A stretch of DNA of 64,000 bases from an uncultured Bacteroidales bacterium (lineage in GTDB: Bacteria; Bacteroidota; Bacteroidia; Bacteroidales; VadinHA17), in the NCBI GenBank assembly GCA_963743775.1, contig CAVURA010000018.1:142518-206517 (forward strand), read 5' to 3'. Under the pieces are notes generated by a model, which did no database searches, was not told the DNA's origin, and saw only the letters and a list, made by a program, of their open reading frames with translations. Shown in pieces: positions 15,195 through 64,000 of this stretch (the stretch's first letter is position 1; the number at the start of each line of letters is the position of its first letter). The position numbers and the translations under genes were made by a program.

Positions 15195-16373
15195 ATGCCC
15201 AGGATATTAGTCGTTGACGACGAAAAATCAATCAGGAACACCCTGAAAGACGTTCTTGAATATGAGAAATATGAGGTATTTCTTGCGGAAGATGGCGCCT
15301 CAGGAATAGACCAGTTCACCCAGGAAGCGTTTGATGTGGTGTTGTGCGACATCAAGATGGCCAAGATGGATGGCATAGAGGTTTTGCAGAAGCTCCTTGA
15401 GATTACTTCCGACGTGCCTGTCATAATGATTTCGGGTCACGGGAATATAGACACGGCAGTTGATTCAATCAAGAAAGGTGCCTTTGATTTCCTTGAAAAA
15501 CCGCTTGACCTGAACCGTCTTCTCATCACCATCCGTAACGCTCTTGAAAGGGGCTCTCTTATCTCACAGACAAAAGTCCTGAAGAAACAGGTCAGCAAAA
15601 AATTTGAGATTGTTGGCACTTCTCCTGCCATCATTGTTGTAAAGGAGATGATAGACAGAGTAGCTCCGACGGAGGCAAGGGTGCTCATCACAGGCGCCAA
15701 CGGTACGGGCAAGGAGCTTGTTGCCCATCAGATACATGAAAAAAGCAATCGCGCCAGAGGTCCTTTCGTTGAAGTCAACTGTGCCGCCATCCCTTCAGAA
15801 TTGATTGAGAGTGAGCTTTTCGGTCATGAAAAAGGGTCATTTACATCAGCCATTAAGCAACGCATAGGCAAATTTGAGCAGGCCACCGGAGGCACTATCT
15901 TCCTTGATGAGGTTGGAGACATGAGCCTTGCCGCGCAGGCTAAGGTTCTCAGGGCCCTCCAGGAGAGCAAGATCACACGGGTGGGTTCAGACAAGGACAT
16001 AAACGTCGATGTAAGGGTAATTGCCGCAACCAACAAGAATATACGCAGTGAGATTGACCGCAATAACTTCAGGGAAGATCTTTACCACCGGCTGAGTGTC
16101 ATTCTGATCCATGTGCCTACGCTTAATGAGCGAAGTGATGACATACCGCTCCTCGCTGACTATTTCAATACCCTTATCTGCAATGAGTACGGCATGGTAA
16201 AGAAAAAAATAAGGCCTGATGCCATAGCCGAGATGCAGAAGATCAAATGGACCGGGAATATAAGAGAGTTCAGAAATGTGCTTGAGAGGCTGATAATACT
16301 TTGCCCTGAAGAAATATCCGGCAGGGATGTAATTACCTATGCACACCCTGTCTCGGGTTTTAACGAAATATAA
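15195..16373 (+). CDS. sigma-54-dependent response regulator (REC + AAA+), with no C-terminal HTH
   Basis: REC domain (VVDDE...DIKM). The AAA+ domain has Walker A GANGTGKE, Walker B IFLDEV and GSFTSA in place of GAFTGA. The protein ends about 20 aa after the AAA+ lid. Confidence 0.85.
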   Translation: MPRILVVDDEKSIRNTLKDVLEYEKYEVFLAEDGASGIDQFTQEAFDVVLCDIKMAKMDGIEVLQKLLEITSDVPVIMISGHGNIDTAVDSIKKGAFDFLEKPLDLNRLLITIRNALERGSLISQTKVLKKQVSKKFEIVGTSPAIIVVKEMIDRVAPTEARVLITGANGTGKELVAHQIHEKSNRARGPFVEVNCAAIPSELIESELFGHEKGSFTSAIKQRIGKFEQATGGTIFLDEVGDMSLAAQAKVLRALQESKITRVGSDKDINVDVRVIAATNKNIRSEIDRNNFREDLYHRLSVILIHVPTLNERSDDIPLLADYFNTLICNEYGMVKKKIRPDAIAEMQKIKWTGNIREFRNVLERLIILCPEEISGRDVITYAHPVSGFNEI

Positions 16374-28347: not shown

Positions 28348-29478
28348 TCAGTAGGAATGATCCTCTCCGGCCATCTCCTCCCTGGTGATCATCTTCCGGT
28401 TCATTGATCTCCATGCATACCATATATATGCTGCTACGAACGGAATACTAAATGACACATACATCATCGTTTTAAGCGTAAACATGCTGGACGAGGCTTT
28501 AGCCAGTGTCAGCGAACTCTGCAGATCGGATGAAGAAGGATAGAATGCCGTGTTACCATAACCGGCCATGAAAAAGAGAGCCATCACAACGGCAACAGTA
28601 CCCGGACCTGCGAACCATATCGCTTTGCGCGAGTGCCGTATTATTCCAAGCCAGAGTGAGACAAGCACAAGCACCACTCCTCCGGCAAAAAAGATGAGTG
28701 TGAATATGTTTGACAGCAGATTATGCAGGTAGAGGTATTTCACCATCGTGATCTCGCCTGTCGAGCTGTCTGCCATGAAGCCTTTTGCAAAGAGCAGGCA
28801 GCCGGTGAATGCCAGGAAAAAGACAAGGAACGGGATTGCATTTCTGACCAGCGCCTTGTTGATGGCAGCATTCATATCACCGTCGTCGATTGTGTCGGAG
28901 AGATACATCAGTCCCAGAACTCTTGCCAGAAAGATAACCGTAAGGCCAAGGAGCAGGTTCACCGGGTTAACCAGGGCTTCAAGGCCGTGCCATCCTGAGC
29001 CCCACGTGACCCTGTTAAAGAGATCAAGTGAAAAATCGGAACCTGTAAAGAAGGTTGCGACAGCCACGCCAATCAGGAAAGGGCCAAGGCATCCGTTGAT
29101 CAAAAGAAATGTGTCGAATACGCCGGTGCCGAAGACGTTGGATGGTTTTGAACGGTATTCGTATGCTACGGCCTGTATGATGAAACTGAACAGGATTGCC
29201 ATCCACACCCAGTATGCACCGCCGAAGCTGGTTGCATAAAAGAGAGGGAAGGAAGCAAAAAATGCTCCTCCGAAAGTGACGAGAGTGGTGAAGGTGAACT
29301 CCCATTTGCGGCCCAGTGCGTTGACCATCATCTTGCGTTGCATGTCGTTGCGCGGCAGGGAGAAGATAAACGACTGTCCTCCCTGAACAAACATCAGGAA
29401 AACGAGAAGGCCGGCAAGAAGTGATATTATCAGCCACCAGTAATTTTGCAGGAATGCGTGTGAGATCATCAATGTCAT
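28348..29478 (-). CDS. cydB: cytochrome bd ubiquinol/menaquinol oxidase subunit II
   Basis: 376-aa polytopic ORF directly downstream of cydA, with a typical CydB N-terminus (LQNYWWLIISLL). Confidence 0.9.
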   Translation of the reverse strand: MTLMISHAFLQNYWWLIISLLAGLLVFLMFVQGGQSFIFSLPRNDMQRKMMVNALGRKWEFTFTTLVTFGGAFFASFPLFYATSFGGAYWVWMAILFSFIIQAVAYEYRSKPSNVFGTGVFDTFLLINGCLGPFLIGVAVATFFTGSDFSLDLFNRVTWGSGWHGLEALVNPVNLLLGLTVIFLARVLGLMYLSDTIDDGDMNAAINKALVRNAIPFLVFFLAFTGCLLFAKGFMADSSTGEITMVKYLYLHNLLSNIFTLIFFAGGVVLVLVSLWLGIIRHSRKAIWFAGPGTVAVVMALFFMAGYGNTAFYPSSSDLQSSLTLAKASSSMFTLKTMMYVSFSIPFVAAYIWYAWRSMNRKMITREEMAGEDHSY

Positions 29479-29490
29479 GACAGTGTCCTC

Positions 29491-31047
29491 CTAATGTTTT
29501 GGTCCGTTTTTGATCTGCCTGACCATTATTGAAACCTCCGCAATGAGCAGGGCGGTGAAGAGAACGGCGAAGAGGCAGAAAGTGGTCTGCACCGCCCCGG
29601 TACTTATGTTCGAGACAGCCACGCTGACCGGCATGAGGTCCTGTATTATCCATGGCTGCCGGCCCATCTCGCAAACTATCCATCCCAGTTCGCTTGCGAG
29701 GTACGCCAGCGGTATGGAGAAGAGGGAGAGCCACAGAAACCAGCGGTTGCGCTCAAGCGTCCCCCGCCTGTGAAAGCCGATTGCCAGAATGAAAAGCAGG
29801 ATGAAGAAAAATCCCAATCCGACCATAAGACGGAAACTGTAGAAGGTTACAGGCACCGACGGGATCACTTGCCAGGGATGATCAAAATAGCTGTAGCCAA
29901 AATACCTGAAGTAGTTGTCGATAAAGTCCTGCTCCCTGAACCTGGCGCCGAGGGCAGCTGTTGAAGCCTCATCCCCTATCTCCTTGGCCATCTTGTAATC
30001 AATGAGCACCTGCCGGGCATACCTGCCACGTTCCATCATGTCGCTCACCGGAAGTATTCCTTTTTCAGGGTTGCCGTTGACCAGATCTTTCAGGCCGGGA
30101 ACATAACCGTCTTCCATGCCTGTTGTCATTATAGAAAGAAGCTTGGGTAATGCAATCTTCATTTTGATATCATGAACTGTCTTCTCTCCCATTCTTTCTC
30201 CGGTATCAGTAAGAGCGCCTATCACTGTCAGGCCTGCCCCGCTCTTGCCTTCATAAAGTGCTTCCATGGACGCAAACTTGACCGGCTGCACCTTAGAGAT
30301 GGTGCGGGCGGAGCTGTCTCCTGTCATCGCCACCAGCAATGCAGAGACAAGCCCGAAAATACCTGAAATAAGGATACTCTTCCTTGCCATTACCTCGTCC
30401 CTGTGCCGCAGGAGAAACCATGAGCTAATGCCCACGACAAAGACCGAACCAAGCACAAAGCCTGATGTCACCGTATGGGTGAATTTATTGATGGCAACCG
30501 GGTTCAGCAGGACATCGCGGAAGCTGCTCATCTCATTACGGGCGGTATCCGGATTGAATACCATTCCCACCGGATTTTCCATCCATGAGTTGGCAACAAG
30601 GATCCACATCGCCGAGAGGCTTGCTCCCACGGCCACAAGCCAGGTGGAGGCGAGGTGAAATTTCTTTCCTACCTTGTTCCATCCGAAGAACATCACTGCA
30701 ACAAATGTCGATTCCAAAAAGAAAGCCAATATACCCTCTATTGCAAGGGGTGCTCCGAAGATGTCACCAACGAACCATGAATAGTTTGACCAGTTGGTGC
30801 CGAATTCAAATTCGAGAATTATTCCGGTGGCCACTCCTATTGCGAAGTTGATGCCAAAAAGCGTCATCCAGAACTTCGTTATTTTCTTCCATATCTCATC
30901 TCCCGTGCGCACGTAGATTGTTTCCATGAACGCAAGTATAAATGAGAGGCCAATGGTCAGGGGTACAAAGAGCCAGTGGTAAATAGCTGTCAGGGCGAAT
31001 TGCGCTCTTGACCAGTTTACAAGTGAGAGATCAATATTTTCAATCAT
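29491..31047 (-). CDS. cydA: cytochrome bd oxidase subunit I
   Basis: Contains SRAQFALTAIYHWLFVPLT, a Q-loop and GWIVCEMGRQPW. Confidence 0.95.
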   Translation of the reverse strand: MIENIDLSLVNWSRAQFALTAIYHWLFVPLTIGLSFILAFMETIYVRTGDEIWKKITKFWMTLFGINFAIGVATGIILEFEFGTNWSNYSWFVGDIFGAPLAIEGILAFFLESTFVAVMFFGWNKVGKKFHLASTWLVAVGASLSAMWILVANSWMENPVGMVFNPDTARNEMSSFRDVLLNPVAINKFTHTVTSGFVLGSVFVVGISSWFLLRHRDEVMARKSILISGIFGLVSALLVAMTGDSSARTISKVQPVKFASMEALYEGKSGAGLTVIGALTDTGERMGEKTVHDIKMKIALPKLLSIMTTGMEDGYVPGLKDLVNGNPEKGILPVSDMMERGRYARQVLIDYKMAKEIGDEASTAALGARFREQDFIDNYFRYFGYSYFDHPWQVIPSVPVTFYSFRLMVGLGFFFILLFILAIGFHRRGTLERNRWFLWLSLFSIPLAYLASELGWIVCEMGRQPWIIQDLMPVSVAVSNISTGAVQTTFCLFAVLFTALLIAEVSIMVRQIKNGPKH

Positions 31048-33161: not shown

Positions 33162-34388
33162 CTACGATTCCTGGTTCGGCTTCACAAGTTCGCGTGCAAA
33201 CCGCTCACCGTATTCGATCAGGGTCTTCTCCTTATCGCTCTCAGGCATAAACTTCAATGCTGCCGGCTCCTCAAAAAAACGAAGTTTCAGGTTTTTCATC
33301 ATCCCGGCTATCAGCGTGGGCGCCTCGCCACTCCATCCGTATGATCCGAATGAGCCCGCCAGCTTACCCCTGTCGCGCAGGGGACTGATCATTGCAGCGA
33401 GTTTATAAACAGGTAAAAGGGTATTCTGATTGATTGTAGGCGAGCCCACGATGATCCCATCGGCAATGGTCAGCTTTGAGTCCATTTCGCCTGATTGTGC
33501 ATTCTCAATATCCATCACCTCCACGGTGACATTATTCACTGTGCGGGCCCCGCGGGCTATCAATTCAGCCATCTTAGCAGTGTAACCGTATGCCGACACA
33601 TAGGTTATCAGCAGCCTCTTTCCCTCTGAAGCTGAGATAAGCTTTAGATAATCACCTGCCAGCTGTTCAGTTGTATCAACAATGGTCTTCCAGTTTTTTC
33701 TCAGTACCGGACCGTGACCGGTAGCTATCATGGAAATGTCAAGGGGCCTTATCTTTTCAATGGCCCTGATCATGAATTTGCTGTAAGGCTTCAGAATGAC
33801 ATCAAAATAATACCTGAAATATTTTTCATAATCGCCCGACAGATCGTCAAATATCTCCTCACTGCAATAATGTGCACCGAACGCATCGCATGTGAACAGT
33901 ATCCTGTCCTCCTCGAGCCAGGTGAAGATGGTGTCTGGCCAGTGAAGGTTGGGGGCTGCAATGAACCTCAGTGTTTTGTTGCCGAGATCAAGGGTGTCAC
34001 CATCCTTAACCACAAGTGATCTGAAGGGCCTGTTGATGATGTCAGCCAGGTATCTGACAGCGTTGCCGCTGCCTACCACGACTGCCTGCGGTGCAATTTC
34101 AAGAAGCTGCCTCAATGATCCTGAATGGTCGGGCTCTGTGTGATCAAGGACAATATAGGATATCTCTGCCGGGTCAGTAACTTTTTTCAGCTTGCTGATA
34201 TATGTCTGGCTGAACTTTTCCTTGGCCGTCTCAACCACAGTCTTTTTGTCTGCATTTATAAAATATGAGTTATAGGTGGAGCCGCGCTCGGTATGCATCA
34301 CAATATCGAAAACCGTGATGTCGGGATCAAGTATCCCTATCCATTTCACGTCCGGAGTAAGATCCAGTATTTTGTTATCTTCTTTCAT
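33162..34388 (-). CDS. FprA-family flavodiiron protein (O2/NO reductase)
   Basis: Metallo-beta-lactamase-like domain with the di-iron motif LDHTEPDHSG, plus a C-terminal flavodoxin domain (ITYVSAYGYT). Confidence 0.9.
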   Translation of the reverse strand: MKEDNKILDLTPDVKWIGILDPDITVFDIVMHTERGSTYNSYFINADKKTVVETAKEKFSQTYISKLKKVTDPAEISYIVLDHTEPDHSGSLRQLLEIAPQAVVVGSGNAVRYLADIINRPFRSLVVKDGDTLDLGNKTLRFIAAPNLHWPDTIFTWLEEDRILFTCDAFGAHYCSEEIFDDLSGDYEKYFRYYFDVILKPYSKFMIRAIEKIRPLDISMIATGHGPVLRKNWKTIVDTTEQLAGDYLKLISASEGKRLLITYVSAYGYTAKMAELIARGARTVNNVTVEVMDIENAQSGEMDSKLTIADGIIVGSPTINQNTLLPVYKLAAMISPLRDRGKLAGSFGSYGWSGEAPTLIAGMMKNLKLRFFEEPAALKFMPESDKEKTLIEYGERFARELVKPNQES

Positions 34389-56098: not shown

Positions 56099-59000
56099 TT
56101 ATGATTTCGGGACTTTCGCAGATGCACGTTTGTACATCATCGAGGCTGCTAAAGCCAGGGACACAAGCAGAATCACTGCAACATAAACAAACACTGGCAC
56201 AGGTACTGCGTCACCCCCGGCATACGAATGGAGCCCTGATAAATAGTAGTTGACCCCAAAGTAGGTCATGAGAACTGAAGAAAATGCAAATAGTGAAAGA
56301 AGATTAAACGAATAAACATCCTTCAGTCCGGGAATCATTCTTGAATGGGTTACCAGAGTATATATAACTATTGTGATCAGTGACCAGGTCTCCTTAGGAT
56401 CCCATCCCCAGTAACGACCCCATGATTCGTTAGCCCAGACAGCACCGAGAAAGGTCCCGATGGTCAGAAAATAGAGTCCCAGCGTCAGTGTCCTGTAATT
56501 GATGACAGTAAGCTCGTCTATCGTGGCGCTTATCCTTTCGTGGTTCCTTTTATTGACAAAGAGCATCATGATCATCACAATAAGACCGAGTAAGGCCCCC
56601 AGACCCAGAAATCCGTAACTGCCTGTAATCACAGAGACATGCAGCGTGAGCCAGTACGATTTGAGAACGGGCACCAGGTTCGTTATCTCAGGGTCCATGA
56701 AGCTCAGGTGAGCTACCATAAGCGTCATTCCGGCAAGTACGGCTGTGGCAGCCAGCGCCAGAAGCGACTTGCGGCTGAAGATAAAGCCGGCCAGCATTGT
56801 GACCCAGGAGATGAAAAGCATTGACTCATACCCGTTGCTCATGGGCGAATGGCCGGAAATGTACCACCTTATGCCCAGACCCAGCGTATGAAAGATAAAT
56901 CCGGCTACAGCCAGGCTGAAAAGGATCTTCATAAACACTGAGCCTCCTCCCTTGCCGGTAATGATAAAACTGATCAGGGTTATGATCATTAAAAGACCCA
57001 GTGTGGCATAAAAAGGAAACAGCTTTTCAAATATATTAGCCTTGTAATAGAAGAGCTCTGCCCTGATCCTTGACTCCGACGGAAGATCATATTCTGAATT
57101 CACCCGCTGATATTCCTTAATTGCCCGGAGGTACTCGTCAGGCTTTACCGGAGCGCCTCCCACAGCAGTGACAGCCTGAGCCCACATAGGTATGACATTG
57201 AGTACAAAAAGTGAATCATCAACACCTGAAGTGTGCCTGACGGCATCGCCGGAGCTTCCCCACTGATCTGTCCCGTCTTTCAGCGGGAATATATTCAGGA
57301 AACCCCCTTCTGACATCATGTAACATATATTTACCCTCTCGTCAACCTTTATAACCTCCTTGTCGAAACGGGTCCTCTCACCTGCCGGTTTTGCATATGC
57401 CTTTTCAACGTACGATGAAAGCTTGTACCCTCCTTCGTCCCCAAATGAAACAATATCCGAAAAAGCAGCCATGTCGCCTTTCACTTTCAGCAGATCTGAC
57501 AGCTCCCCATTTGAGACTTTAATAAGAGGCACATTATGCCAGTGTTCAGGATCAAGCGAATAACCCAAAAATACCTGCATGGGTGAGAGGCCCTCAAACT
57601 CCTTTTCCCTGGCAACCTTCCGGAGAATGTCACTGCTTATTGTATAAAGAGGCTTGGTACGCCCCTTCTGATCCTGCGCAAGCACTTCCCCGAAACGGTT
57701 GGCTTCTTCACTGTCAAGTACCAGATGCTGGGCTTTTAAAGGTGAGAGGGAAGTAAGGGCAATAATCATAACAACCAAAGCTGCCTGACGGCGGTACCGC
57801 GAATTCCAGTAACCCTTCTTTACGGTCCTGAAGAACGATCTTCTGTTGATTATCGAGAGAACGATGAACAGGAAAAGCAGGGCATAACCGGTATAGGTTG
57901 TAATCATGCCAGCCGGATCGTGATTCACTGAAAGGACAGTACCACGCTCGTCCTTGTCATAAGACGACTGATAGAAGCGGTAACCCTTGTACTTAAGTAT
58001 ATGGTTCATATATATATCATACTTAATGTCAGCTTTCTGATTCTCATCCGTTAATGTAACCCGGCTTTTAAAACCGGAAGGGCTGTTGGAACCCGGATAC
58101 CGTTCAATCATGAAATCGTTAAGAGTGATACTGAAGGGCAGGTCAAGAACTCTGTTTCCATAGCTGACATTCACCTTAAGATCACCTGCAGTCCCGTGCC
58201 ATTCTGATCTTTCTGCTTCAGGATTGGTCCACAGGTAAACCTTCTTTTCATAGTCTTTACCTGACAGGGTAAACTCAAAGGCGCCGGAACCGTCCTGGCC
58301 CGTATTATCGGCAGACGATGCAGGCACTGCCACGCCGCTGCGCGTCATCTGCCGTGGAACCAATTTGTATCCTCCGATTGTAAATACGGTGCCCGGAACT
58401 ATGCTAATAAATGTATCAGGCGGGCATATCACTCTGGTCATGTCAGACATCCTTGTCAGCATCATCTCTTTTCCGGATCTTATAAGGAATGAAGAGCTGT
58501 CAAGTTCAATAATAATATCCGCATCTATGCCAAACCCCATGGTCATCTCTCCGGCCATAGCTGTTTCGCCCCGGGCAAGGACAATTATTTCACTTGTCCT
58601 CATATCACGGGTGGCAAGAAAAGCAACCATAGGAACCCCGTCAGGTGATTCTTCCACCTGTTTTTCGACACCGGGAATGTATCTGTCCAGTTTCAGCTGC
58701 ACTTCAGTGCCACCGGCATTGAGTGTCTTCCTGTAACCGGTACGACCACTCCCGGCAACAGACAGAGCTTTTGAGTGGCCTGCCATTACTTTATTATCCT
58801 TGTCAGCCAATTCAAAAACAAGATCGCTGACCGAAGAATATGTCAATGATGTGGCTTCCCCCTCTCTTATGTGCATCATGCCGTCGAAACCGGTATACCG
58901 GGTTATTGCCGCACCGATGACCATTACAATAAAGGCGAGATGGAATATCATAACTGTAATCTTTTCTTTCCGGTACAGCTTGTATTTTATTATCTGTCCG

Positions 59001-59182
59001 GAAAGATTGATAACAAGCAGCAGAAACAGCAGTTCAAACCAGCGTGTGTTGTAAACCATTGACCTGGCCGTGTCAGCTCCGAAATCATTCTCAATGAATG
59101 TTGCTGCAGCCATGGCTGCGGCCAGCAGAATGAACAGTATACCCATAACTGCCGGAGTAAGAAGAAATCTTAATACTTTCAT
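56099..59182 (-). CDS. ccsBA: system II cytochrome c synthase, fused CcsB(ResB)-CcsA (CcsBA)
   Basis: 1027-aa ORF. The N-terminal part is a ResB-like domain with TM anchors. The C-terminal part is a polytopic CcsA with the WWD motif WGRYWGWDPKETWSL. Confidence 0.9.
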   Translation of the reverse strand: MKVLRFLLTPAVMGILFILLAAAMAAATFIENDFGADTARSMVYNTRWFELLFLLLVINLSGQIIKYKLYRKEKITVMIFHLAFIVMVIGAAITRYTGFDGMMHIREGEATSLTYSSVSDLVFELADKDNKVMAGHSKALSVAGSGRTGYRKTLNAGGTEVQLKLDRYIPGVEKQVEESPDGVPMVAFLATRDMRTSEIIVLARGETAMAGEMTMGFGIDADIIIELDSSSFLIRSGKEMMLTRMSDMTRVICPPDTFISIVPGTVFTIGGYKLVPRQMTRSGVAVPASSADNTGQDGSGAFEFTLSGKDYEKKVYLWTNPEAERSEWHGTAGDLKVNVSYGNRVLDLPFSITLNDFMIERYPGSNSPSGFKSRVTLTDENQKADIKYDIYMNHILKYKGYRFYQSSYDKDERGTVLSVNHDPAGMITTYTGYALLFLFIVLSIINRRSFFRTVKKGYWNSRYRRQAALVVMIIALTSLSPLKAQHLVLDSEEANRFGEVLAQDQKGRTKPLYTISSDILRKVAREKEFEGLSPMQVFLGYSLDPEHWHNVPLIKVSNGELSDLLKVKGDMAAFSDIVSFGDEGGYKLSSYVEKAYAKPAGERTRFDKEVIKVDERVNICYMMSEGGFLNIFPLKDGTDQWGSSGDAVRHTSGVDDSLFVLNVIPMWAQAVTAVGGAPVKPDEYLRAIKEYQRVNSEYDLPSESRIRAELFYYKANIFEKLFPFYATLGLLMIITLISFIITGKGGGSVFMKILFSLAVAGFIFHTLGLGIRWYISGHSPMSNGYESMLFISWVTMLAGFIFSRKSLLALAATAVLAGMTLMVAHLSFMDPEITNLVPVLKSYWLTLHVSVITGSYGFLGLGALLGLIVMIMMLFVNKRNHERISATIDELTVINYRTLTLGLYFLTIGTFLGAVWANESWGRYWGWDPKETWSLITIVIYTLVTHSRMIPGLKDVYSFNLLSLFAFSSVLMTYFGVNYYLSGLHSYAGGDAVPVPVFVYVAVILLVSLALAASMMYKRASAKVPKS

Positions 59183-59203: not shown

Positions 59204-59941
59204 CTAGCCTTTTTCGGAGATTAAACGAAGCTTTTCACGCTGGAGGATCTTAACTGAGCGTGGAGTCGCCTGAATGATTTTTTCATTCTCAAGCTCGCCC
59301 ATTATCCTCACAACACTCTCTTTTGCCATATTGGTCATTTCTCCGAGTTCCTGGCGTGACAGTACCATCTCAAAACTGTCTGAATGAAAAAGTGTATCCG
59401 CAAAATAGAGTAATGTCTCCGCGAGTCTTCCATGCATCTTCTTCTGTGTCAGGTTTACCACCTTATGATGCATCATGTATGCATTTTCACTGAGCTCTTC
59501 AATAAACCCGACGGCAAAATCCGGATTGCCGGCAATGAGCCGGCGGATGATGTCAAAGCTTATAAAGCAGGCTTGTACCGGGGTAATTGCAGCCACAGAA
59601 TAGCAGTATCTTGAATTAACGTGAACACCTGGGCCGGCAAGCAATGTTGATTGTCCGGCAAGATCAAGAATCAGGTTTCTTCCCGAGTACCCTTCCATGT
59701 ATACTTTCGTAAGACCTGAAAGAATGAAAACAGCATTTGATGATGGTGAGCCCTGCTTGATAATTATCTCCCCCTGGTTAAAACCGGCTTCATAACGGTT
59801 ACTGTTAACAAGGTCAAGCTCTTCTTTTGAAAGATTTCTGAAGTTGTTCCAGCATTTGGAACAGACCTCACAACTTGATATTACGTTTTCACTGAACATG
59901 GTTTCACTCTGAAATTTACAGCCAAACCTACAATAACGCAT
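59204..59941 (-). CDS. Crp/Fnr-family transcriptional regulator with a Cys-rich N-terminus
   Basis: cNMP-binding-like beta-barrel (GEIIIKQGSPSSNAVFILSGL) and a C-terminal HTH (SRQELGEMTNMAKESVVRIM). The N-terminus MRYCRFGCKF...SSCEVCSKCW has 5 Cys. The alternative start at 59899 keeps only CxxCxxC, and the TTG at 59956 is another possible start. Confidence 0.8.
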   Translation of the reverse strand: MRYCRFGCKFQSETMFSENVISSCEVCSKCWNNFRNLSKEELDLVNSNRYEAGFNQGEIIIKQGSPSSNAVFILSGLTKVYMEGYSGRNLILDLAGQSTLLAGPGVHVNSRYCYSVAAITPVQACFISFDIIRRLIAGNPDFAVGFIEELSENAYMMHHKVVNLTQKKMHGRLAETLLYFADTLFHSDSFEMVLSRQELGEMTNMAKESVVRIMGELENEKIIQATPRSVKILQREKLRLISEKG

Positions 59942-60113: not shown

Positions 60114-61310
60114 ATGAAGGGAAGTTTGAAGCTTTTTTCGTTATTAGTCATGACCGGGATGGTGATGATATCCTGTGAAGGTCCAATGGGTCCGATAGGT
60201 CCACAAGGCGCACAGGGTCCAAAGGGAGAACCGGGAACAACCGTTGCCTGCACAGAGTGCCATAATCCTGATGTTGTTGAGGCAAAAGTAGTTGAGTACG
60301 ATCACTCAGTGCATTTCAGCGGTGTAGCATTTGAAGAAGGAACCAGAAACGCTTGTGCACCGTGTCATTCAGATCAGGGTTTCAGGTATGTTGTGACGAA
60401 CAACACTCCTGTAACTTTTATTCCGGATCCGGCCAATGCAGGAAAGTTTCTGAATAATTATTCAGTCGACGCCATTACCGCATCTCTGCCCGGACCAATA
60501 GGCTGTATGACCTGTCACAGTGCGCTCCATTCAACATATAGCGGAGACGACTTCTCACCACTTACGACAACTGCTGAAGTGCCAATGACGATGTGGGGCG
60601 GTTCAAAAAGCATCAATTTTGCGAAGGCTAAAGGAAACCTTTGTACCAAGTGTCACCAGCCAAGACCTGTAACAGCCTCAAGCGGAAATGTAATTGATTA
60701 CGCGCTGCTGGTTTCAGATCCGGGCACAAAATATACGCTCTCAAGCTTAAGCTACAGGACCGGTATTCATTACGGAGCACAGGGTGCAATAGCAGCCGGT
60801 GTTGGAGGTATCCAGTTCGGAACAGGTTATGCAAACTCAGGACATACTGCAAACCTCTCATGCGGAAACTGCCACATGGCAGAACCAAGGACCCTGTCAG
60901 GAGGCCATTCATTCAGCGCAACCGGCCTGTTTACGGGATGCAACGTGAGTGGATGCCACGCATCGCTGAGTGCCACAAGCCCGACTTATACCAACGCTGT
61001 AAATGATATTACTGACCTGCTGAGTGATCTGGCAAATAAAATAAATGCCGTAGGTGCCGGGCATGATATTCTCCAGACAGATCCTGAAGATGGCCAGTAT
61101 CATGGTTACCTGGATATCTATGATGCAGGCTCAAATCCAACCGGTTACTGGAAGAACCCCAGCCAGGGCAATGTTGCATTCCCGCCTATAACAAATGCGC
61201 AGTTCGGTGCAATTCTCAACTACCAGCTGGCATTCAGGGACGGAAGCTTTGGCGTTCACAACTACACGTATACAAAGAAGCTGCTTGAAAACACTCTTGC
61301 AGCCTGGTAG
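60114..61310 (+). CDS. multihaem cytochrome c lipoprotein (5 CXXCH + 1 CX4CH) with an N-terminal collagen-like G-X-Y run
   Basis: Signal and lipobox MKGSLKLFSLLVMTGMVMISC, followed by EGPMGPIGPQGAQGPKGEPGTT. The haem motifs are CTECH, CAPCH, CMTCH, CTKCH, CGNCH and CNVSGCH. The C-terminal helix reads FRDGSFGVHNYTYTKKLLE. Confidence 0.85.
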   Translation: MKGSLKLFSLLVMTGMVMISCEGPMGPIGPQGAQGPKGEPGTTVACTECHNPDVVEAKVVEYDHSVHFSGVAFEEGTRNACAPCHSDQGFRYVVTNNTPVTFIPDPANAGKFLNNYSVDAITASLPGPIGCMTCHSALHSTYSGDDFSPLTTTAEVPMTMWGGSKSINFAKAKGNLCTKCHQPRPVTASSGNVIDYALLVSDPGTKYTLSSLSYRTGIHYGAQGAIAAGVGGIQFGTGYANSGHTANLSCGNCHMAEPRTLSGGHSFSATGLFTGCNVSGCHASLSATSPTYTNAVNDITDLLSDLANKINAVGAGHDILQTDPEDGQYHGYLDIYDAGSNPTGYWKNPSQGNVAFPPITNAQFGAILNYQLAFRDGSFGVHNYTYTKKLLENTLAAW

Positions 61311-61466: not shown

Positions 61467-61877
61467 TTATTTCTTAAAACTTCTCATGTGATTCACCAAT
61501 GCCCACATTTCATTCTCAGGGATTTTCTTGTCAAATGCAGGCATTTCACCACGTCCGGTCTTGGTTCTGTAGAATATCTCACCATCCGTAAAGGCCTGGA
61601 ATTCGGCTGAAGAGAAGTTACCCGGATTAGTCTTGCACATCCTGCCTTTTACGCCGTCACCCAGCCCGGTCTTGCCATGACATGATGCACAGTTCTTTGA
61701 CCATGAAGACATACCCAGCTGCATGGTGGCATCATCAGCTTTAGCCGGGTTTGCCTTGCTCTTCTCATTAGCAGGCACAGGCCACGGTTCAGCTTTCTTC
61801 TGACTTTGTGCGTTCATCACCTGCGACAAGGAGAAGGTCACCAGTAAAGCACCAACAAATACTGATTTGAATTTCAT
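61467..61877 (-). CDS. class I monohaem cytochrome c (paralogue 2)
   Basis: Signal peptide, a single CASCH, and a distal Met region (GRGEMPAF). Confidence 0.85.
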   Translation of the reverse strand: MKFKSVFVGALLVTFSLSQVMNAQSQKKAEPWPVPANEKSKANPAKADDATMQLGMSSWSKNCASCHGKTGLGDGVKGRMCKTNPGNFSSAEFQAFTDGEIFYRTKTGRGEMPAFDKKIPENEMWALVNHMRSFKK

Positions 61878-61922
61878 AATTTACACTTTTTGGTTATACA
61901 TAACAATTATCACTTATCGTGC

Positions 61923-61930
61923 CAAAAGTA
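61923..61930 (-). promoter_or_regulatory. Bacteroidota -7 promoter box (TACTTTTG) for paralogue 2
   Basis: The minus strand matches TAnnTTTG, 45 nt upstream of the ATG at 61877 and downstream of a strong terminator. Confidence 0.45.
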
Positions 61931-61960
61931 TAAATTTTTAATTTGGGGTTTACTCATGCA

Positions 61961-61990
61961 TAAAAAAACCTGTCATGACATGACAGGTTC
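61961..61990 (-). terminator. rho-independent terminator between the two monohaem cytochrome c genes
   Basis: Perfect 11-bp palindromic stem aacctgtcatg/catgacaggtt. The minus strand continues TTTTTTTa. Confidence 0.8.
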
Positions 61991-62008
61991 TTTTAGTTTT
62001 TCGGCAGC

Positions 62009-62425
62009 TTATTGCTTAAGAGATTTCATGTAAATAACCATCTTCCAGATATCGTTATCAGGAATTTTCTTGTCATAGGCAGGCATTTCTCCTCTTCCGG
62101 TTTTGGTCTGGTAATACATGGTGCCCTCACTGTATGCCTGAAAGTCGGCTCCTGAGAAATCACCAGGGAAAACTTTACACATTCTTCCTTTGGGGCCATC
62201 ACCCTTACCAAGCTTGCCATGACATGATGCACAGTTTTTGTCATAAGCTGTTTTGCCCGCTGCAATCGATGTTGCATCAGTGGCGACAGGATTCTTCATT
62301 GTTTTATACTCAGCCGGGATAGTCCACGGTTCGCCCTTTTTCTGCTGACCATAAGCAGTGACAGACATCACGGCAAAGACAGCTGTCAGCATCATGACTG
62401 AAATAGTTCTAAATGTTCTTTTCAT
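62009..62425 (-). CDS. class I monohaem cytochrome c (paralogue 1)
   Basis: Signal peptide, a single CASCH, and GRGEMPAY. It aligns along its whole length with the 61467..61877 product. Confidence 0.85.
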   Translation of the reverse strand: MKRTFRTISVMMLTAVFAVMSVTAYGQQKKGEPWTIPAEYKTMKNPVATDATSIAAGKTAYDKNCASCHGKLGKGDGPKGRMCKVFPGDFSGADFQAYSEGTMYYQTKTGRGEMPAYDKKIPDNDIWKMVIYMKSLKQ

Positions 62426-62451: not shown

Positions 62452-63072
62452 TTAATGACTCTCCTGCCAGCCGGTGACGATGCTTCTGAAATTACTCAAA
62501 GGCGACTTACCCATTGTACTGACATAGAGATGAATAAATAAAAATATCACAATCAGGAAACCAAGAATTACATGAAACTGGTCTGTAAGGAAAATTCCGC
62601 TCAGCCCCAGGAATTTTTTGAGAATAAATTCCGGAAACATCAGGGCCCAACCAGTGATAAAAAGCATCGGCAGGGCAAAATACATCACAGCGACATATGA
62701 TACTTGCTGGAGAGGATTGAATTTACGGTCACTGCCGACCGGGTAAGGAGCCTTTTCACCTTTGAAATATCCATAGGCATAATAGTAGCCCTGCTTCCAC
62801 AGCCTTGCACCCATTCCTCTAATCTGTGCCAGGTAATGTTTTCCGTTTGGGGTGAAAAGGTTACCGGCAAGAAATACTGTATAACTTATTGTAAGCAGGA
62901 TACCGCAAACATTATGGACTGAAACGGCGCGCTTAAAATTAACTATCATGGCGTTATCAGGATTGGAATAAAGCATGCTGAACCCTGTAACAATAAGGAA
63001 AAGACACAAAATGGCATTTGAAAGGTGCCAAAGCCTGACCCAGACAGGATAGTGATAGAAATTACTGCTCAT
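62452..63072 (-). CDS. dihaem b-type membrane cytochrome (PhsC/FdnI/Ni-hydrogenase cyt b-like, 4 TM)
   Basis: 206-aa ORF. His residues sit in TM1 (WVRLWHLSN) and TM2 (VSVHNVCG), and two sit in TM4 (DQFHVILGFLIVIFLFIHLY), which is the PF01292-type ligand pattern. Its start overlaps the upstream multihaem gene by 11 nt. Confidence 0.75.
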   Translation of the reverse strand: MSSNFYHYPVWVRLWHLSNAILCLFLIVTGFSMLYSNPDNAMIVNFKRAVSVHNVCGILLTISYTVFLAGNLFTPNGKHYLAQIRGMGARLWKQGYYYAYGYFKGEKAPYPVGSDRKFNPLQQVSYVAVMYFALPMLFITGWALMFPEFILKKFLGLSGIFLTDQFHVILGFLIVIFLFIHLYVSTMGKSPLSNFRSIVTGWQESH

Positions 63073-64000
63073 AATAGCGTTTAACAGGTTTAATTATTAT
63101 CCTGAAAATTGTATGTATTAGCCCGATTGCAAGAGTCATGCCAATAATGAATATCCCTGCTAAAGAAATGAATTTGCTGTGGTTAGCTCCGATGACATAA
63201 GAGTCGTTTCTGAGCATAACTCCATTGACAAAACCTTTCTCAATGCGGTTCTCCTTTGAGGCATATTTATAAAGCGTACCCATCAGTATGGAGTTCTTGT
63301 TGTGACAGTCAGAACAGGTATTTACGGCGCTGTCAGCAGACATAACTTCATGTGCAACAAGAATACTGTCAGTCATACGTGTGTGACAATCAAGGCATCT
63401 TACTGCCTCAAGATGCCTTTCGACATTGGGTAACCACTCATGTTTCGGAAGTACCTTCTCCAGACCTTTTTCAGATATCATGCCCATAATATCCGAATGA
63501 CCATGACAACTAAGACACATTTCATTTGACCTGATAATATAATCACGTCCGCCAGTGGTCTGACGAGCCAGGGGGTTATAGTAATGAGCATTATGACACT
63601 TCCAGCAGGTGACAAGGCCGTCAGTTGCCGTAAAATGAATACTTCTCTGGTACTCGGCATCGATCTCCTCAAAACCGTACTTTGCATAGTTAGGGTCATT
63701 ACCGTGGCAGTCAATACAATTCCAGGAAGCCTCAAAACGAGTTTCCACACTGTGAGGAAAGCTCTTGAACCCTTCCGAGTGACAGTCAAGACAGTTAAAG
63801 CTCCAGTGAACCGAGTTATAAAAAAGATCAGGGCTTATCACATTGTGCTGTGCCATAAGCTGTTTCCTGCTTACCCCTGAAACCGTATCAGTCAGGGTAT
63901 AAACCAGTTTGCCGTGACATTTAAGACAGTTCTGCTCATTCTGGTCAGCATAGAGACTTAATTCAGCCCCTTTTTTTACCGTCGTATCCTGTTTATCGCC
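63062..64000 (-). CDS. multihaem cytochrome c with at least 7 CXXCH motifs and a C-terminal TM anchor (5' end outside the window)
   Basis: The reading frame stays open upstream of the listed ATG to the window edge (...NCLKCHGKLVYTLTD...). The motifs are CLKCH, CLDCH, CIDCH, CWKCH, CLSCH, CLDCH and CSDCH. The C-terminal TM segment is FISLAGIFIIGMTLAIGLIHTIF. Confidence 0.8.
   Translation of the reverse strand, partial: GDKQDTTVKKGAELSLYADQNEQNCLKCHGKLVYTLTDTVSGVSRKQLMAQHNVISPDLFYNSVHWSFNCLDCHSEGFKSFPHSVETRFEASWNCIDCHGNDPNYAKYGFEEIDAEYQRSIHFTATDGLVTCWKCHNAHYYNPLARQTTGGRDYIIRSNEMCLSCHGHSDIMGMISEKGLEKVLPKHEWLPNVERHLEAVRCLDCHTRMTDSILVAHEVMSADSAVNTCSDCHNKNSILMGTLYKYASKENRIEKGFVNGVMLRNDSYVIGANHSKFISLAGIFIIGMTLAIGLIHTIFRIIIKPVKRYYEQ

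Follow-up and report, generated by a model that had tools for sequence, protein, structure and literature searches.

The closest described counterpart of the genes considered here is the CbcBA (Cbc5) complex of Geobacter, in which CbcA (GSU0594) is a heptahaem cytochrome c with a C-terminal transmembrane anchor and a match to PF09699, and CbcB (GSU0593) is a PF01292 protein, described as "thiosulfate reductase-like", with four transmembrane helices, cbcA lying upstream of cbcB (Joshi, Chan and Bond 2021). The complex is a menaquinol:cytochrome c oxidoreductase for which genetics show electron export, and for a histidine of the CbcA helix a joint action with the b haems has been suggested (Joshi, Chan and Bond 2021); Geobacter needs the complex for respiring acceptors below about -0.21 V. 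Joshi, Chan and Bond (2021) also report homologs from Bacteroidetes and fused forms from Chloroflexi, and we found no paper that lists GSU0590-0592. Geobacter CbcL (Cbc1) and ImcH and Shewanella CymA are likewise inner-membrane gateways from quinol to periplasmic multihaem chains. They are, however, built differently: CbcL is a single polypeptide with six transmembrane helices and nine haems and, according to Joshi, Chan and Bond (2021), is not homologous in sequence to CbcB, while ImcH and CymA, of the NapC/NirT family, have N-terminal anchors and no b subunit. A periplasmic subunit held by one C-terminal helix beside a four-helix dihaem cytochrome b is also the arrangement of E. coli FdnH/FdnI (1KQF) and of hydrogenase HydC/HyaC (4GD3), and for Wolinella HydA the histidine of the anchor helix is needed for quinone reactivity, as cited in Joshi, Chan and Bond (2021).

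The window, i.e., the whole stretch of 64,000 nucleotides from a Bacteroidales bacterium that was analysed, ends in a pair of cytochrome genes (Table 1). Given that this pair agrees with Geobacter CbcBA in architecture, Pfam families, gene order and published distribution, we consider that it probably encodes a CbcBA (Cbc5)-type cytochrome bc complex, with the gene at the window edge as its cbcA-like half; the likeness to GSU0594/GSU0593 is one of architecture, Pfam families and the published statement, compared by description and not by sequence alignment. Shared with Geobacter CbcBA are seven CXXCH motifs in a periplasmic c subunit that has a signal peptide and a histidine-containing C-terminal transmembrane anchor, a separate four-helix PF01292 dihaem cytochrome b with PhsC as its best match, and the position of the c gene immediately upstream of the b gene. 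The pair is therefore already known in kind, a Bacteroidales copy of the quinone-pool electron gateway described in Geobacter. An earlier note on this DNA had proposed a Cbc-like quinol dehydrogenase, which architecture, families and gene order support, and had pointed to the Geobacter CbcL/Cbc complexes for comparison, among which CbcBA/Cbc5 is the match and the fused CbcL is not. A role as the entry point for electrons from the quinone pool, also suggested there, would be expected from homology and from the Geobacter genetics. Differences exist as well: four histidines are conserved in the b family here against three reported for Geobacter CbcB, the flanks hold a DUF5777 barrel, a small haem lipoprotein and class I monohaem cytochromes c, and the host is a Bacteroidales bacterium without demonstrated metal respiration. 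Geobacter was represented neither among the 44 loci of a genome scan with a peptide pattern nor among the non-Bacteroidota clades of a profile search. The one organism name obtained for ten family representatives was Magnetococcales, and candidate proteins whose gene neighbourhoods were inspected came from Bacteroidota or from a proteobacterium that carries Mtr genes.

Table 1 Features of the cbcBA-like locus and its neighbours (positions in the window; fragment, the part of the c subunit encoded within the window)
Feature	Position	Strand	Basis or detail
cbcA-like gene, heptahaem c-type cytochrome	63062..64000	-	3' 92% of the gene: 312 of 338 codons, plus stop
Seven-CXXCH span of the cbcA-like gene	63302..63928	-	conservation and shuffle control
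Individual CXXCH motifs	63914-63928, 63779-63793, 63704-63718, 63593-63607, 63503-63517, 63383-63397, 63302-63316	-	fragment residues 25, 70, 95, 132, 162, 202, 229
Seven conserved distal His of the c subunit	within 63302..63928	-	fragment H65, H83, H122, H139, H187, H196, H217
C-terminal transmembrane helix of the c subunit, FISLAGIFIIGMTLAIGLIHTIF	63104..63172	-	hydropathy; fragment residues 277-299
Anchor-helix His codon	63113-63115	-	fragment H296, full-length H322
Overlap of cbcA stop and cbcB start, ATGAGCAGTAA	63062..63072	-	11 nt; stop 63062-63064, cytochrome b ATG 63070-63072
cbcB-like cytochrome b, 206 aa, four transmembrane helices	62452..63072	-	PF01292
Predicted haem-ligand His of the b subunit	63025-63027, 62914-62916, 62572-62574, 62530-62532	-	H16, H53, H167, H181
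Class I monohaem cytochrome c, 138 aa, signal peptide	62009..62425	-	PF13442, PF00034
Second monohaem cytochrome c	61467..61877	-	paralog of 62009..62425 at 51% identity
Multihaem lipoprotein MHC398, 398 aa, convergent	60114..61310	+	5 CXXCH and 1 CX4CH
Crp/Fnr-family regulator	59204..59899	-	invariant N-terminal CxxC and central Cys
CcsBA fusion, system II cytochrome c haem lyase	56099..59182	-	TIGR03144, 194 bits (cutoff 187.6); PF05140, PF01578

The reverse-strand translation of the cbcA-like gene is a single open frame, and only the signal peptide, i.e., the first 26 codons, falls past the window edge. The missing 78 nt were taken from a near-identical metagenome contig (L001, differing at 2 of ~1600 nt), one of six (L001-L006) that belong to the same population as the window; in these contigs the frame runs 26 more codons to an ATG without a stop or frameshift beyond position 64000, yielding MNPGKISLFFLLAVLCLSPIYAQ followed by DLQGDK and a full-length protein of 338 aa. 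The ATG listed at 63856 corresponds to fragment M49, a residue that is internal and invariant in 39 homologs, so the earlier note was right to place the true start upstream of it and to expect more than 264 aa and at least seven CXXCH motifs. Although an open extension of 48 codons has a probability of ~8% by chance alone, it is coding, as the first haem motif is conserved (C25/C28/H29 invariant) and the same-population contigs carry it. There are exactly seven CXXCH motifs, every one of the 14 cysteines of the fragment lies within them, and 20,000 shuffles of the same residues gave a mean of 0.03 and a maximum of two. Searches with the c subunit returned 875 homologs, and the family profile covers 172 clusters at E<1e-30. 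The seven motifs and the seven distal histidines are invariant in alignment A2 (39 close homologs), and in alignment A3 (65 diverse homologs) they are invariant too, with one case nearly so.

Hydropathy bears out the expectation of a single C-terminal transmembrane helix in the c subunit, which is followed by a basic tail (RIIIKPVKRYYEQ). The anchor-helix histidine sits near its cytoplasmic end and is invariant in alignments A2, A3 and A4. Downstream, the cytochrome b matches PF01292 at 79.6 bits (cutoff 30.1), and its top NCBIfam match, the best-scoring curated family, is PhsC (NF011582; E=3e-48, positions 55-246 of the 248-position model), at 164 bits and thus under the cutoff of 204. The four predicted haem-ligand histidines, conserved in 65 of 66 sequences, align in order to FdnI H18, H57, H155 and H169 and follow the PF01292 pattern of FdnI/HydC, i.e., one in helix 1, one in helix 2 and two in helix 4 that are 14 residues apart; those of HyaC align likewise. 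A profile search of the PDB with the b subunit matched FdnI (1kqf_C, E=9e-6) and HyaC (4gd3_A), while a single-sequence search gave no match. The 11-nt overlap between the two genes, as previously claimed, can be read directly from the sequence and suggests translational coupling, though an overlap does not prove stoichiometry.

The pairing itself is widely conserved. Leaving aside the window's own population, all 47 related loci, from many phyla, have a b gene after the c gene. In each of the 44 genome loci, and in five further contigs, the b gene is co-oriented and immediately downstream; the 44 genome loci come from a scan with one narrow peptide pattern (drawn from a 16-sequence alignment) and include Magnetococcales, other Pseudomonadota, Acidobacteriota, Poribacteria, Coatesbacteria, Ignavibacteriales, Melioribacteraceae and Bacteroidota. 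The c stop and b start overlap or lie at most 30 nt apart in 45 of the 47, and the gene ends usually overlap by 4-17 nt, with 4, 8, 11 or 17 nt as the norm. Natural c-b fusions make up ~23 of the best 150 family representatives and occur in several clades. All 25 fusion proteins examined keep the anchor helix and its histidine, and each runs from this helix through a short linker to b helix 1, which fits our model, as the predicted topology requires that same order. With 47 loci and about 25 fusions, a conserved association of the two genes in other genomes, on which the case for a complex had been made to depend, is well documented. Non-Bacteroidota clades, when searched with a profile, yielded Magnetococcales, Chromatiaceae and Niveibacterium, along with Lentimicrobium. 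In two other lineages, the genes beside the pair are of the MtrA/MtrB porin-cytochrome type. The b/c pair is a portable module of many phyla with interchangeable partners, e.g., an octahaem cytochrome resembling octahaem tetrathionate reductase (OTR-like), MtrAB-type conduits, EB_dh-domain proteins and the DUF5777 set of Bacteroidota.

From these features, we propose the following mechanism. The 338-aa precursor would be exported by means of a cleavable signal peptide, supplied with seven bis-His c-haems by the neighbouring CcsBA lyase and tethered to the cytoplasmic membrane by its one C-terminal helix, leaving the tail in the cytoplasm. Translation of the next gene, coupled through the 11-nt overlap, would provide a four-helix, two-haem cytochrome b of the FdnI/HydC/PhsC family, and the c anchor helix would pack on it as the anchors of FdnH and HydA do. 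Such packing would set the invariant histidine at the cytoplasmic-side membrane level, where FdnI holds haem bC and the quinone site. Menaquinol would then be oxidised at the b subunit, and electrons could cross the membrane via the two b haems and then follow the seven-haem wire to periplasmic acceptors, for which the two co-transcribed monohaem cytochromes c are at hand; onward transfer may reach an outer-membrane module made of the DUF5777 barrel and the small haem lipoprotein. We infer haem ligation, subunit packing, quinol oxidation and direction of flow from PF01292 structures and Geobacter genetics. An AlphaFold2 model of the c subunit (39-sequence alignment) was poor, with a pLDDT of 64 and a pTM of 0.47, as expected for an apo multihaem protein, and a Foldseek search of this model against the PDB returned nothing below E=4. 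By sequence, the c subunit matched one PDB entry, 28pb_A ("Cytochrome c", 278 aa), weakly as a single sequence and at E=1e-20 as a profile, over haems 1-6.

The direction of electron flow deserves scrutiny, as PF01292 subunits run both ways: FdnI and HydC reduce quinone, and PhsC oxidises quinol. The same complex might work in reverse, i.e., as a quinone reductase that supplies menaquinone with electrons from donors in the periplasm or outside the cell (reduced cytochromes c, Fe(II) or a partner cell). Among solved structures, the b subunit is closest to FdnI and HyaC, both indeed quinone reducers, and the homologous FdnI and HydC work in this way in formate dehydrogenase-N and hydrogenase. 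Members of the family occur in magnetotactic, sulfur-oxidising and purple sulfur bacteria, which are not metal reducers, and are common in Magnetococcales, a tubeworm sulfur-oxidising endosymbiont and purple sulfur bacteria; moreover, the association with MtrAB/PioAB-type conduits is as compatible with Fe(II) oxidation as with Fe(III) reduction, and class I monohaem cytochromes such as those of the cluster are typical of electron-uptake chains. Set against this, the only genetic data for the architecture come from Geobacter CbcBA and show export of electrons, the b subunit has its best family match in a quinol oxidiser, seven bis-His haems are usually of low potential, and the host looks anaerobic and fermentative (genes for a cytochrome bd quinol oxidase and a flavodiiron protein are present in the window), so that it would need electron sinks more than sources. 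We therefore regard reverse operation as unlikely, and the flow here, unlike that in the FdnI and HydC systems, as probably outward. The pair also departs from FdnH and the NiFe-hydrogenases in that its periplasmic subunit is a seven-haem cytochrome and not an FeS protein, and in having no molybdopterin or NiFe subunit. PhsC is a quinol-oxidising PF01292 member that drives electrons outward to a low-potential acceptor using the proton motive force, and a similar outward push at the expense of the proton motive force would fit the role of CbcBA near the thermodynamic limit. As the bd oxidase is a quinol oxidase, the organism has a quinone pool.

Outward flow could also serve a single enzyme, the pair being the dedicated quinol dehydrogenase of one soluble multihaem reductase (compare NrfH/NrfA or the OTR-like octahaem) and not a general gateway. 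In about 30 of the 44 loci, the gene after cbcB encodes a 715-740-aa octahaem cytochrome, distantly related to octahaem tetrathionate reductase, that is 55-71% identical across phyla, an enzyme-like degree of conservation. Conserved among the neighbours in Bacteroidota is a multihaem lipoprotein, with homologs of MHC398 in two loci (L042 and L049), and this 398-aa hexahaem protein could be the enzymatic partner here. However, neither the window nor the Bacteroidota loci contain the octahaem, a search of MHC398 against family models gave no recognisable catalytic-site family, and the conserved Bacteroidota partners, i.e., the barrel, the small haem lipoprotein and the monohaem carriers, do not resemble catalytic enzymes. 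A dedicated reductase thus appears improbable, more so than reversed flow, and MHC398 is a possible further partner. Since the octahaem is usual outside Bacteroidota and lacking here, the partners, and perhaps the physiological role, differ by lineage.

That the c subunit is a NapC/NirT/NrfH/CymA-type, "cytochrome c554" or "nitrate reductase" protein beside an unrelated PhsC, as the names of some homologs ("NapC/NirT family cytochrome c", "cytochrome c554", "nitrate reductase") and the best NCBIfam match of the b subunit would have it, can be dismissed, given that NapC/NirT proteins are anchored at the N-terminus and have four or five haems, their own quinol site and no b subunit, against a cleaved signal peptide, seven haems, a C-terminal anchor and a b subunit here, that TIGR03153 (NrfH) reaches 22.7 bits against a cutoff of 134 with PF03264 and PF13435 unmatched, and that the window has no PhsA/PhsB molybdopterin or FeS genes near the pair. 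The comparisons with NrfH/NapC/CymA and with HAO-associated b cytochromes that had been suggested for this DNA accordingly do not hold, the cytochrome c554/HAO-associated identity being rejected on family-model searches. A PhsABC thiosulfate reductase was likewise rejected: the score is below the cutoff, the neighbours are cytochromes and a beta-barrel protein, and, unlike Salmonella PhsC, the b subunit has a multihaem cytochrome as its partner.

Returning to the CbcBA-type gateway, in Bacteroidota it is surrounded by a conserved cluster that comprises an Fnr-like regulator, a small haem lipoprotein (~100 residues, with a single CXXCH or CX4CH site), a DUF5777 protein, i.e., a 12-strand outer-membrane barrel of ~250 aa, and monohaem cytochromes c. 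The first monohaem cytochrome c downstream of the pair in the window adjoins it in Bacteroidota loci too and is a likely periplasmic acceptor. In MHC398, collagen-like GXY triplets follow the lipobox cysteine. A CcsBA haem lyase, which is needed for the maturation of all c-type cytochromes of the cluster, is also adjacent in locus L042. Barrel and small haem lipoprotein hold the gene position that MtrA/MtrB-type proteins take elsewhere, which recalls the MtrAB/PioAB and Cyc2 conduits. The barrel is, however, not large enough to enclose a decahaem protein in the manner of MtrB and, unlike Cyc2, is not fused to its cytochrome; no homology of DUF5777 to MtrB or Cyc2 was detected. We tentatively postulate that in Bacteroidota the pair might form the inner-membrane end of an undescribed trans-envelope conduit, with the DUF5777 barrel and haem lipoprotein as the outer end, class I monohaem cytochromes and the hexahaem lipoprotein as the bridge, and an Fnr-like regulator. 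If so, it would be a third architecture of porin-cytochrome modules, beside MtrAB and Cyc2, and an extracellular electron sink for strictly anaerobic, "fermentative" Bacteroidales such as Lentimicrobium. We found neither a description of this cluster in the literature nor any paper mentioning DUF5777. The cluster is present in a cultured isolate, Lentimicrobium saccharophilum TBC1 (locus L052), which offers a route to testing extracellular electron transfer by abundant Bacteroidales of anaerobic digesters and sediments.

For the pair itself, the consequences are mostly ones of annotation: the ORF track truncates the cbcA-like gene, and public names of its homologs ("NapC/NirT", "cytochrome c554", "nitrate reductase", "Zn finger HypA/HybF") are wrong, whereas a correct call marks this Bacteroidales genome as carrying a CbcBA-type gateway from the quinone pool. 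The invariant histidine of the anchor helix and the repeated natural fusions provide, in addition, a testable model of subunit assembly.

Regulation also sets the locus apart from that of Geobacter, where the sigma-54 regulator BccR and an operon-encoded response regulator act, a difference that concerns control in Deltaproteobacteria and not the complex itself. Scans for sigma-70 promoters and terminators gave nothing above the shuffle background. The cluster is likely controlled by the Crp/Fnr-family regulator, and a gene of this type is adjacent in six loci (L038, L042, L049, L052, L053 and L055); the sole sigma-54 activator of the window (15195-16373) lies ~47 kb away.

The earlier note held that the cytochrome c gene at the window edge (cbcA-like) stays open upstream of its listed ATG, that its product exceeds 264 aa and ends in a single transmembrane helix, and that the extension adds one haem site, making at least seven; each of these points was borne out, and several can be refined. 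Translation of the reverse strand gives a single open frame of 312 codons closed by TAA, with seven CXXCH motifs that contain all 14 cysteines of the fragment (20,000 permutations of its residues gave a mean of 0.03 motifs and a maximum of 2). The ATG at 63856 corresponds to M49, counted from the first in-window codon, an internal methionine that is invariant in 39 homologs. Given that 48 open codons are expected by chance in ~8% of cases (computed), openness of the frame alone is weak evidence for coding; the extension counts as coding because no aligned homolog departs from its haem motif (C25, C28, H29). The window's exact cytochrome b protein is encoded on nine public contigs, and L001, a contig of the same population with 2 mismatches in ~1600 aligned bases, extends past the window edge. 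There the frame runs just 26 further codons to an ATG, giving MNPGKISLFFLLAVLCLSPIYAQ ahead of DLQGDK, a predicted standard cleavable signal peptide that lacks an eighth haem motif. As only this peptide is missing from the window, the c subunit is 338 aa long with exactly seven haem sites. Its C-terminus consists of one hydrophobic stretch, FISLAGIFIIGMTLAIGLIHTIF, and then RIIIKPVKRYYEQ; a single helix is thus predicted to tether the periplasmic domain, leaving a short basic tail on the cytoplasmic side.

The stop of this gene lies, as noted earlier, 11 nt inside the downstream cytochrome b gene (cbcB-like; ATGAGCAGTAA), and the pairing recurs in other genomes. Scanning one genome per GTDB species with one narrow peptide pattern returned 44 loci, from Pseudomonadota (Magnetococcales, Kiloniellales, Rhodospirillales and Gammaproteobacteria, including a tubeworm endosymbiont), Bryobacterales, Poribacteria, Coatesbacteria, Ignavibacteriales, Melioribacteraceae and Bacteroidota. 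In each of the 44 the gene immediately downstream, in the same orientation, encodes a homolog of the b protein (30-50% identical to that of the window), and the same order is seen in five further contigs and two more known from gene tables. Most loci show an overlap of 4, 8, 11 or 17 nt between the two genes, which overlap or lie at most 30 nt apart in 45 of 47; translational coupling is therefore the rule across the family and not a peculiarity of the window's genome. Moreover, ~23 of the best 150 family representatives join both subunits in one polypeptide of 500-570 aa, with a seven-haem N-terminal half and a C-terminal half that shares 29-46% identity with the b protein of the window. Several more such fusions appeared in a later profile search and in-frame fusions occur in 2 of the genome loci; they belong to several separate clades. 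In 25 of 25 fusions examined, the anchor helix with its histidine is followed by a 15-30-residue linker and then b helix 1, as a cytoplasmic location of both the c tail and the b N-terminus would require. We consider this order strong comparative evidence that the subunits form a physical complex.

Among 5.8 billion proteins searched, the c subunit has 875 relatives, almost all 330-340 aa long and, where named, from Bacteroidales MAGs; its profile matched 718 of 1.84 billion cluster representatives (172 below 1e-30). In a diverse alignment of 65 representatives, just 28-46% identical to its reference sequence, the seven CXXCH motifs and seven further histidines are invariant or nearly so, which would suffice for bis-His ligation of every c haem. 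One histidine within the C-terminal helix is likewise conserved, four residues ahead of a nearly invariant arginine. AF2 gave a low-quality model of the c subunit, and that model had no structural match. Separately, PDB 28pb chain A, a 278-aa "Cytochrome c", matches the family profile over the region of haems 1-6 (E=1e-20) and would be the first structural template for the heptahaem subunit.

The 206-aa b subunit has four hydrophobic helices and matches PF01292 (79.6 bits; cutoff 30.1); among curated families PhsC, the b subunit of thiosulfate reductase, scores best, though below the PhsC cutoff. Its family profile also matches FdnI of formate dehydrogenase-N (1kqf_C) and HyaC of hydrogenase-1 (4gd3_A). 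Four histidines, H16, H53, H167 and H181, are kept in 65 of 66 family members and align with FdnI H18, H57, H155 and H169, which the Fdn-N structure paper, as relayed by a paper citing it, gives as ligands of the two b haems.

The Cbc-like interpretation put forward in the earlier note gains support from Geobacter sulfurreducens CbcBA (Cbc5), whose published architecture agrees feature for feature with the window's pair: cbcA (GSU0594) lies upstream of cbcB (GSU0593), CbcA is a heptahaem cytochrome with a C-terminal TM anchor, CbcB is a four-TM dihaem b protein resembling "thiosulfate reductase", and, on the model of hydrogenase, a histidine in the CbcA helix was proposed to work together with the b haems (Joshi, Chan and Bond 2021). 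An independent paper places GSU0593 in PF01292 and GSU0594 in PF09699, the families of the window's pair as well. Since architecture and Pfam families agree, we read the pair as a putative Bacteroidales CbcBA-type menaquinol:cytochrome c oxidoreductase. This putative family membership rests on these features together with gene order, fusions and the 2021 statement; Geobacter was absent from the 44 loci of the single-pattern scan and from the matches listed in a profile search of non-Bacteroidota clades. Two differences stand out: four b-subunit histidines are kept in the window's family whereas three were counted for Geobacter CbcB, and the adjacent regulator is of Crp/Fnr type rather than the sigma-54 regulator BccR. 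As CbcBA homologs were noted in Bacteroidetes in 2021 (Prolixibacter, Marinilabiliales, Labilibaculum, with fusions in Chloroflexi), the window's pair is probably a further member of a family known there.

PhsC is a quinol oxidiser that spends proton motive force to pass electrons outward. By analogy with the PF01292 enzymes, electron flow through the PhsC-like b subunit would be outward and low-yield, fitting Geobacter, where respiration of acceptors below -0.21 V depends on CbcBA, with the lowest growth yield (Joshi, Chan and Bond 2021). The opposite direction, in which the complex would reduce quinone, is less likely; it is favoured by FdnI and HyaC, the nearest relatives of the b subunit with solved structures, which do so, and by the frequent occurrence of the family outside metal-reducing organisms. 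In FdnI, haem bC and the quinone site lie at the cytoplasmic-side level, and the anchor-helix histidine of the c family sits at that end of its helix; by analogy with FdnH/FdnI and HydA/HydC, the anchor helix would complete that quinone site. The window also encodes cytochrome bd quinol oxidase subunits I and II and a flavodiiron protein with metallo-beta-lactamase-like and flavodoxin domains (28348-31047 and 33162-34388, both reverse strand), typical oxygen-defence and quinone-pool markers of anaerobes, which demonstrate that a quinone pool is present and that the lifestyle is anaerobe-like.

Genes of the cytochrome cluster and partners of the b/c pair
Feature	Position	Strand	Remarks
Heptahaem cytochrome c (cbcA-like)	63062-64000	-	5' end beyond window edge
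Dihaem cytochrome b (cbcB-like)	62452-63072	-	
Two tandem class I monohaem cytochromes c	61467-62425	-	paralogs, 51% identical
Multihaem lipoprotein	60114-61310	+	398 aa; 5 CXXCH and 1 CX4CH (CNVSGCH)
Crp/Fnr-family regulator	59204-59899	-	N-terminal CxxC and central Cys
CcsB-CcsA (ResB-CcsA) fusion	56099-59182	-	1027 aa; system II cytochrome c haem lyase
126-aa lipoprotein	L001:7738-8118		directly upstream of cbcA with DUF5777, beyond window edge
DUF5777	L001:8141-8977		as above
Octahaem cytochrome	L026:7501-9642; L008:7510-9654		examples; about 28 other loci

The usual Bacteroidota order is an Fnr-like regulator, a lipoprotein of 126-129 aa, DUF5777, sometimes a monohaem c, cbcA and cbcB, then one or more monohaem c and/or another multihaem cytochrome (L001-L006 of the window's population, and the related loci L038, L042, L047, L049 and L051-L055, L052 being the cultured isolate Lentimicrobium saccharophilum). 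The lipoprotein and DUF5777 genes are conserved upstream of cbcA in most Bacteroidota loci examined. The former keeps its lipobox cysteine and a single CXXCH (CX4CH in two members). DUF5777, for which the literature searched held no mention, models as an outer-membrane barrel: 12 strands with a terminal Phe (pTM 0.73), matching FapF, Tsx and OmpG. Its 1305 detected homologs are all single-domain, and at least 12 are on contigs equal in length to those of CbcA matches, so that the two probably occur on the same contigs. Homologs of the larger multihaem lipoprotein, with six collagen-like G-X-Y triplets (GPMGPIGPQGAQGPKGEPG) immediately past its lipobox cysteine, adjoin the pair in other Bacteroidota, and the CcsB-CcsA gene, right beside the cluster in the window, is adjacent in L042 too.

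Elsewhere the partners differ. In ~30 of the 44 loci (Magnetococcales, Gammaproteobacteria, Acidobacteriota, Poribacteria, Ignavibacteriota) cbcB is followed by an octahaem cytochrome of 715-740 aa with an N-terminal anchor, absent from the window. Its relation to octahaem tetrathionate reductase is only distant (TIGR04315, 84 bits; cutoff 375), and its 55-71% identity between phyla is enzyme-like. An EB_dh-domain protein comes next in seven loci. In two proteobacterial lineages (L043:5430-9918 and the contig of P0297) the pair adjoins a DmsE/MtrA-family decahaem cytochrome and an MtrB/PioB porin, in one case also a small monohaem c and an MtrC-like cytochrome, and seems to take the place of Shewanella CymA. 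With different partners in different lineages, the pair behaves as a portable inner-membrane module. Because a small barrel and a haem lipoprotein stand in Bacteroidota where the MtrA/MtrB conduit stands in those two lineages, we tentatively raise the possibility, less likely than not, that the pair is the inner-membrane end of an undescribed trans-envelope conduit with the DUF5777 barrel and haem lipoprotein. These Bacteroidota-specific outer-membrane companions and the invariant anchor-helix histidine merit further study; the practical gains are a corrected cbcA gene model and misleading database names set right.

The regulator's CxxC and central cysteine are invariant in six orthologs beside the same cluster, which suggests an FNR-like redox or oxygen sensor; its listed TTG start (59956) is probably too far upstream, ATG 59899 fitting the orthologs better. 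Between the monohaem paralogs, 131 nt apart, lies a perfect palindrome with a 10-bp stem (61967-61989; AACCTGTCATGACATGACAGGTT), a candidate attenuator, terminator or regulator site. In two Bacteroidota loci (L051:10364-14875 and L053:13028-17005), HmuY-like haem-binding proteins, a TonB-dependent receptor and a T9SS-tailed protein adjoin the cluster, a hint that haem uptake may be connected with this haem-rich locus.
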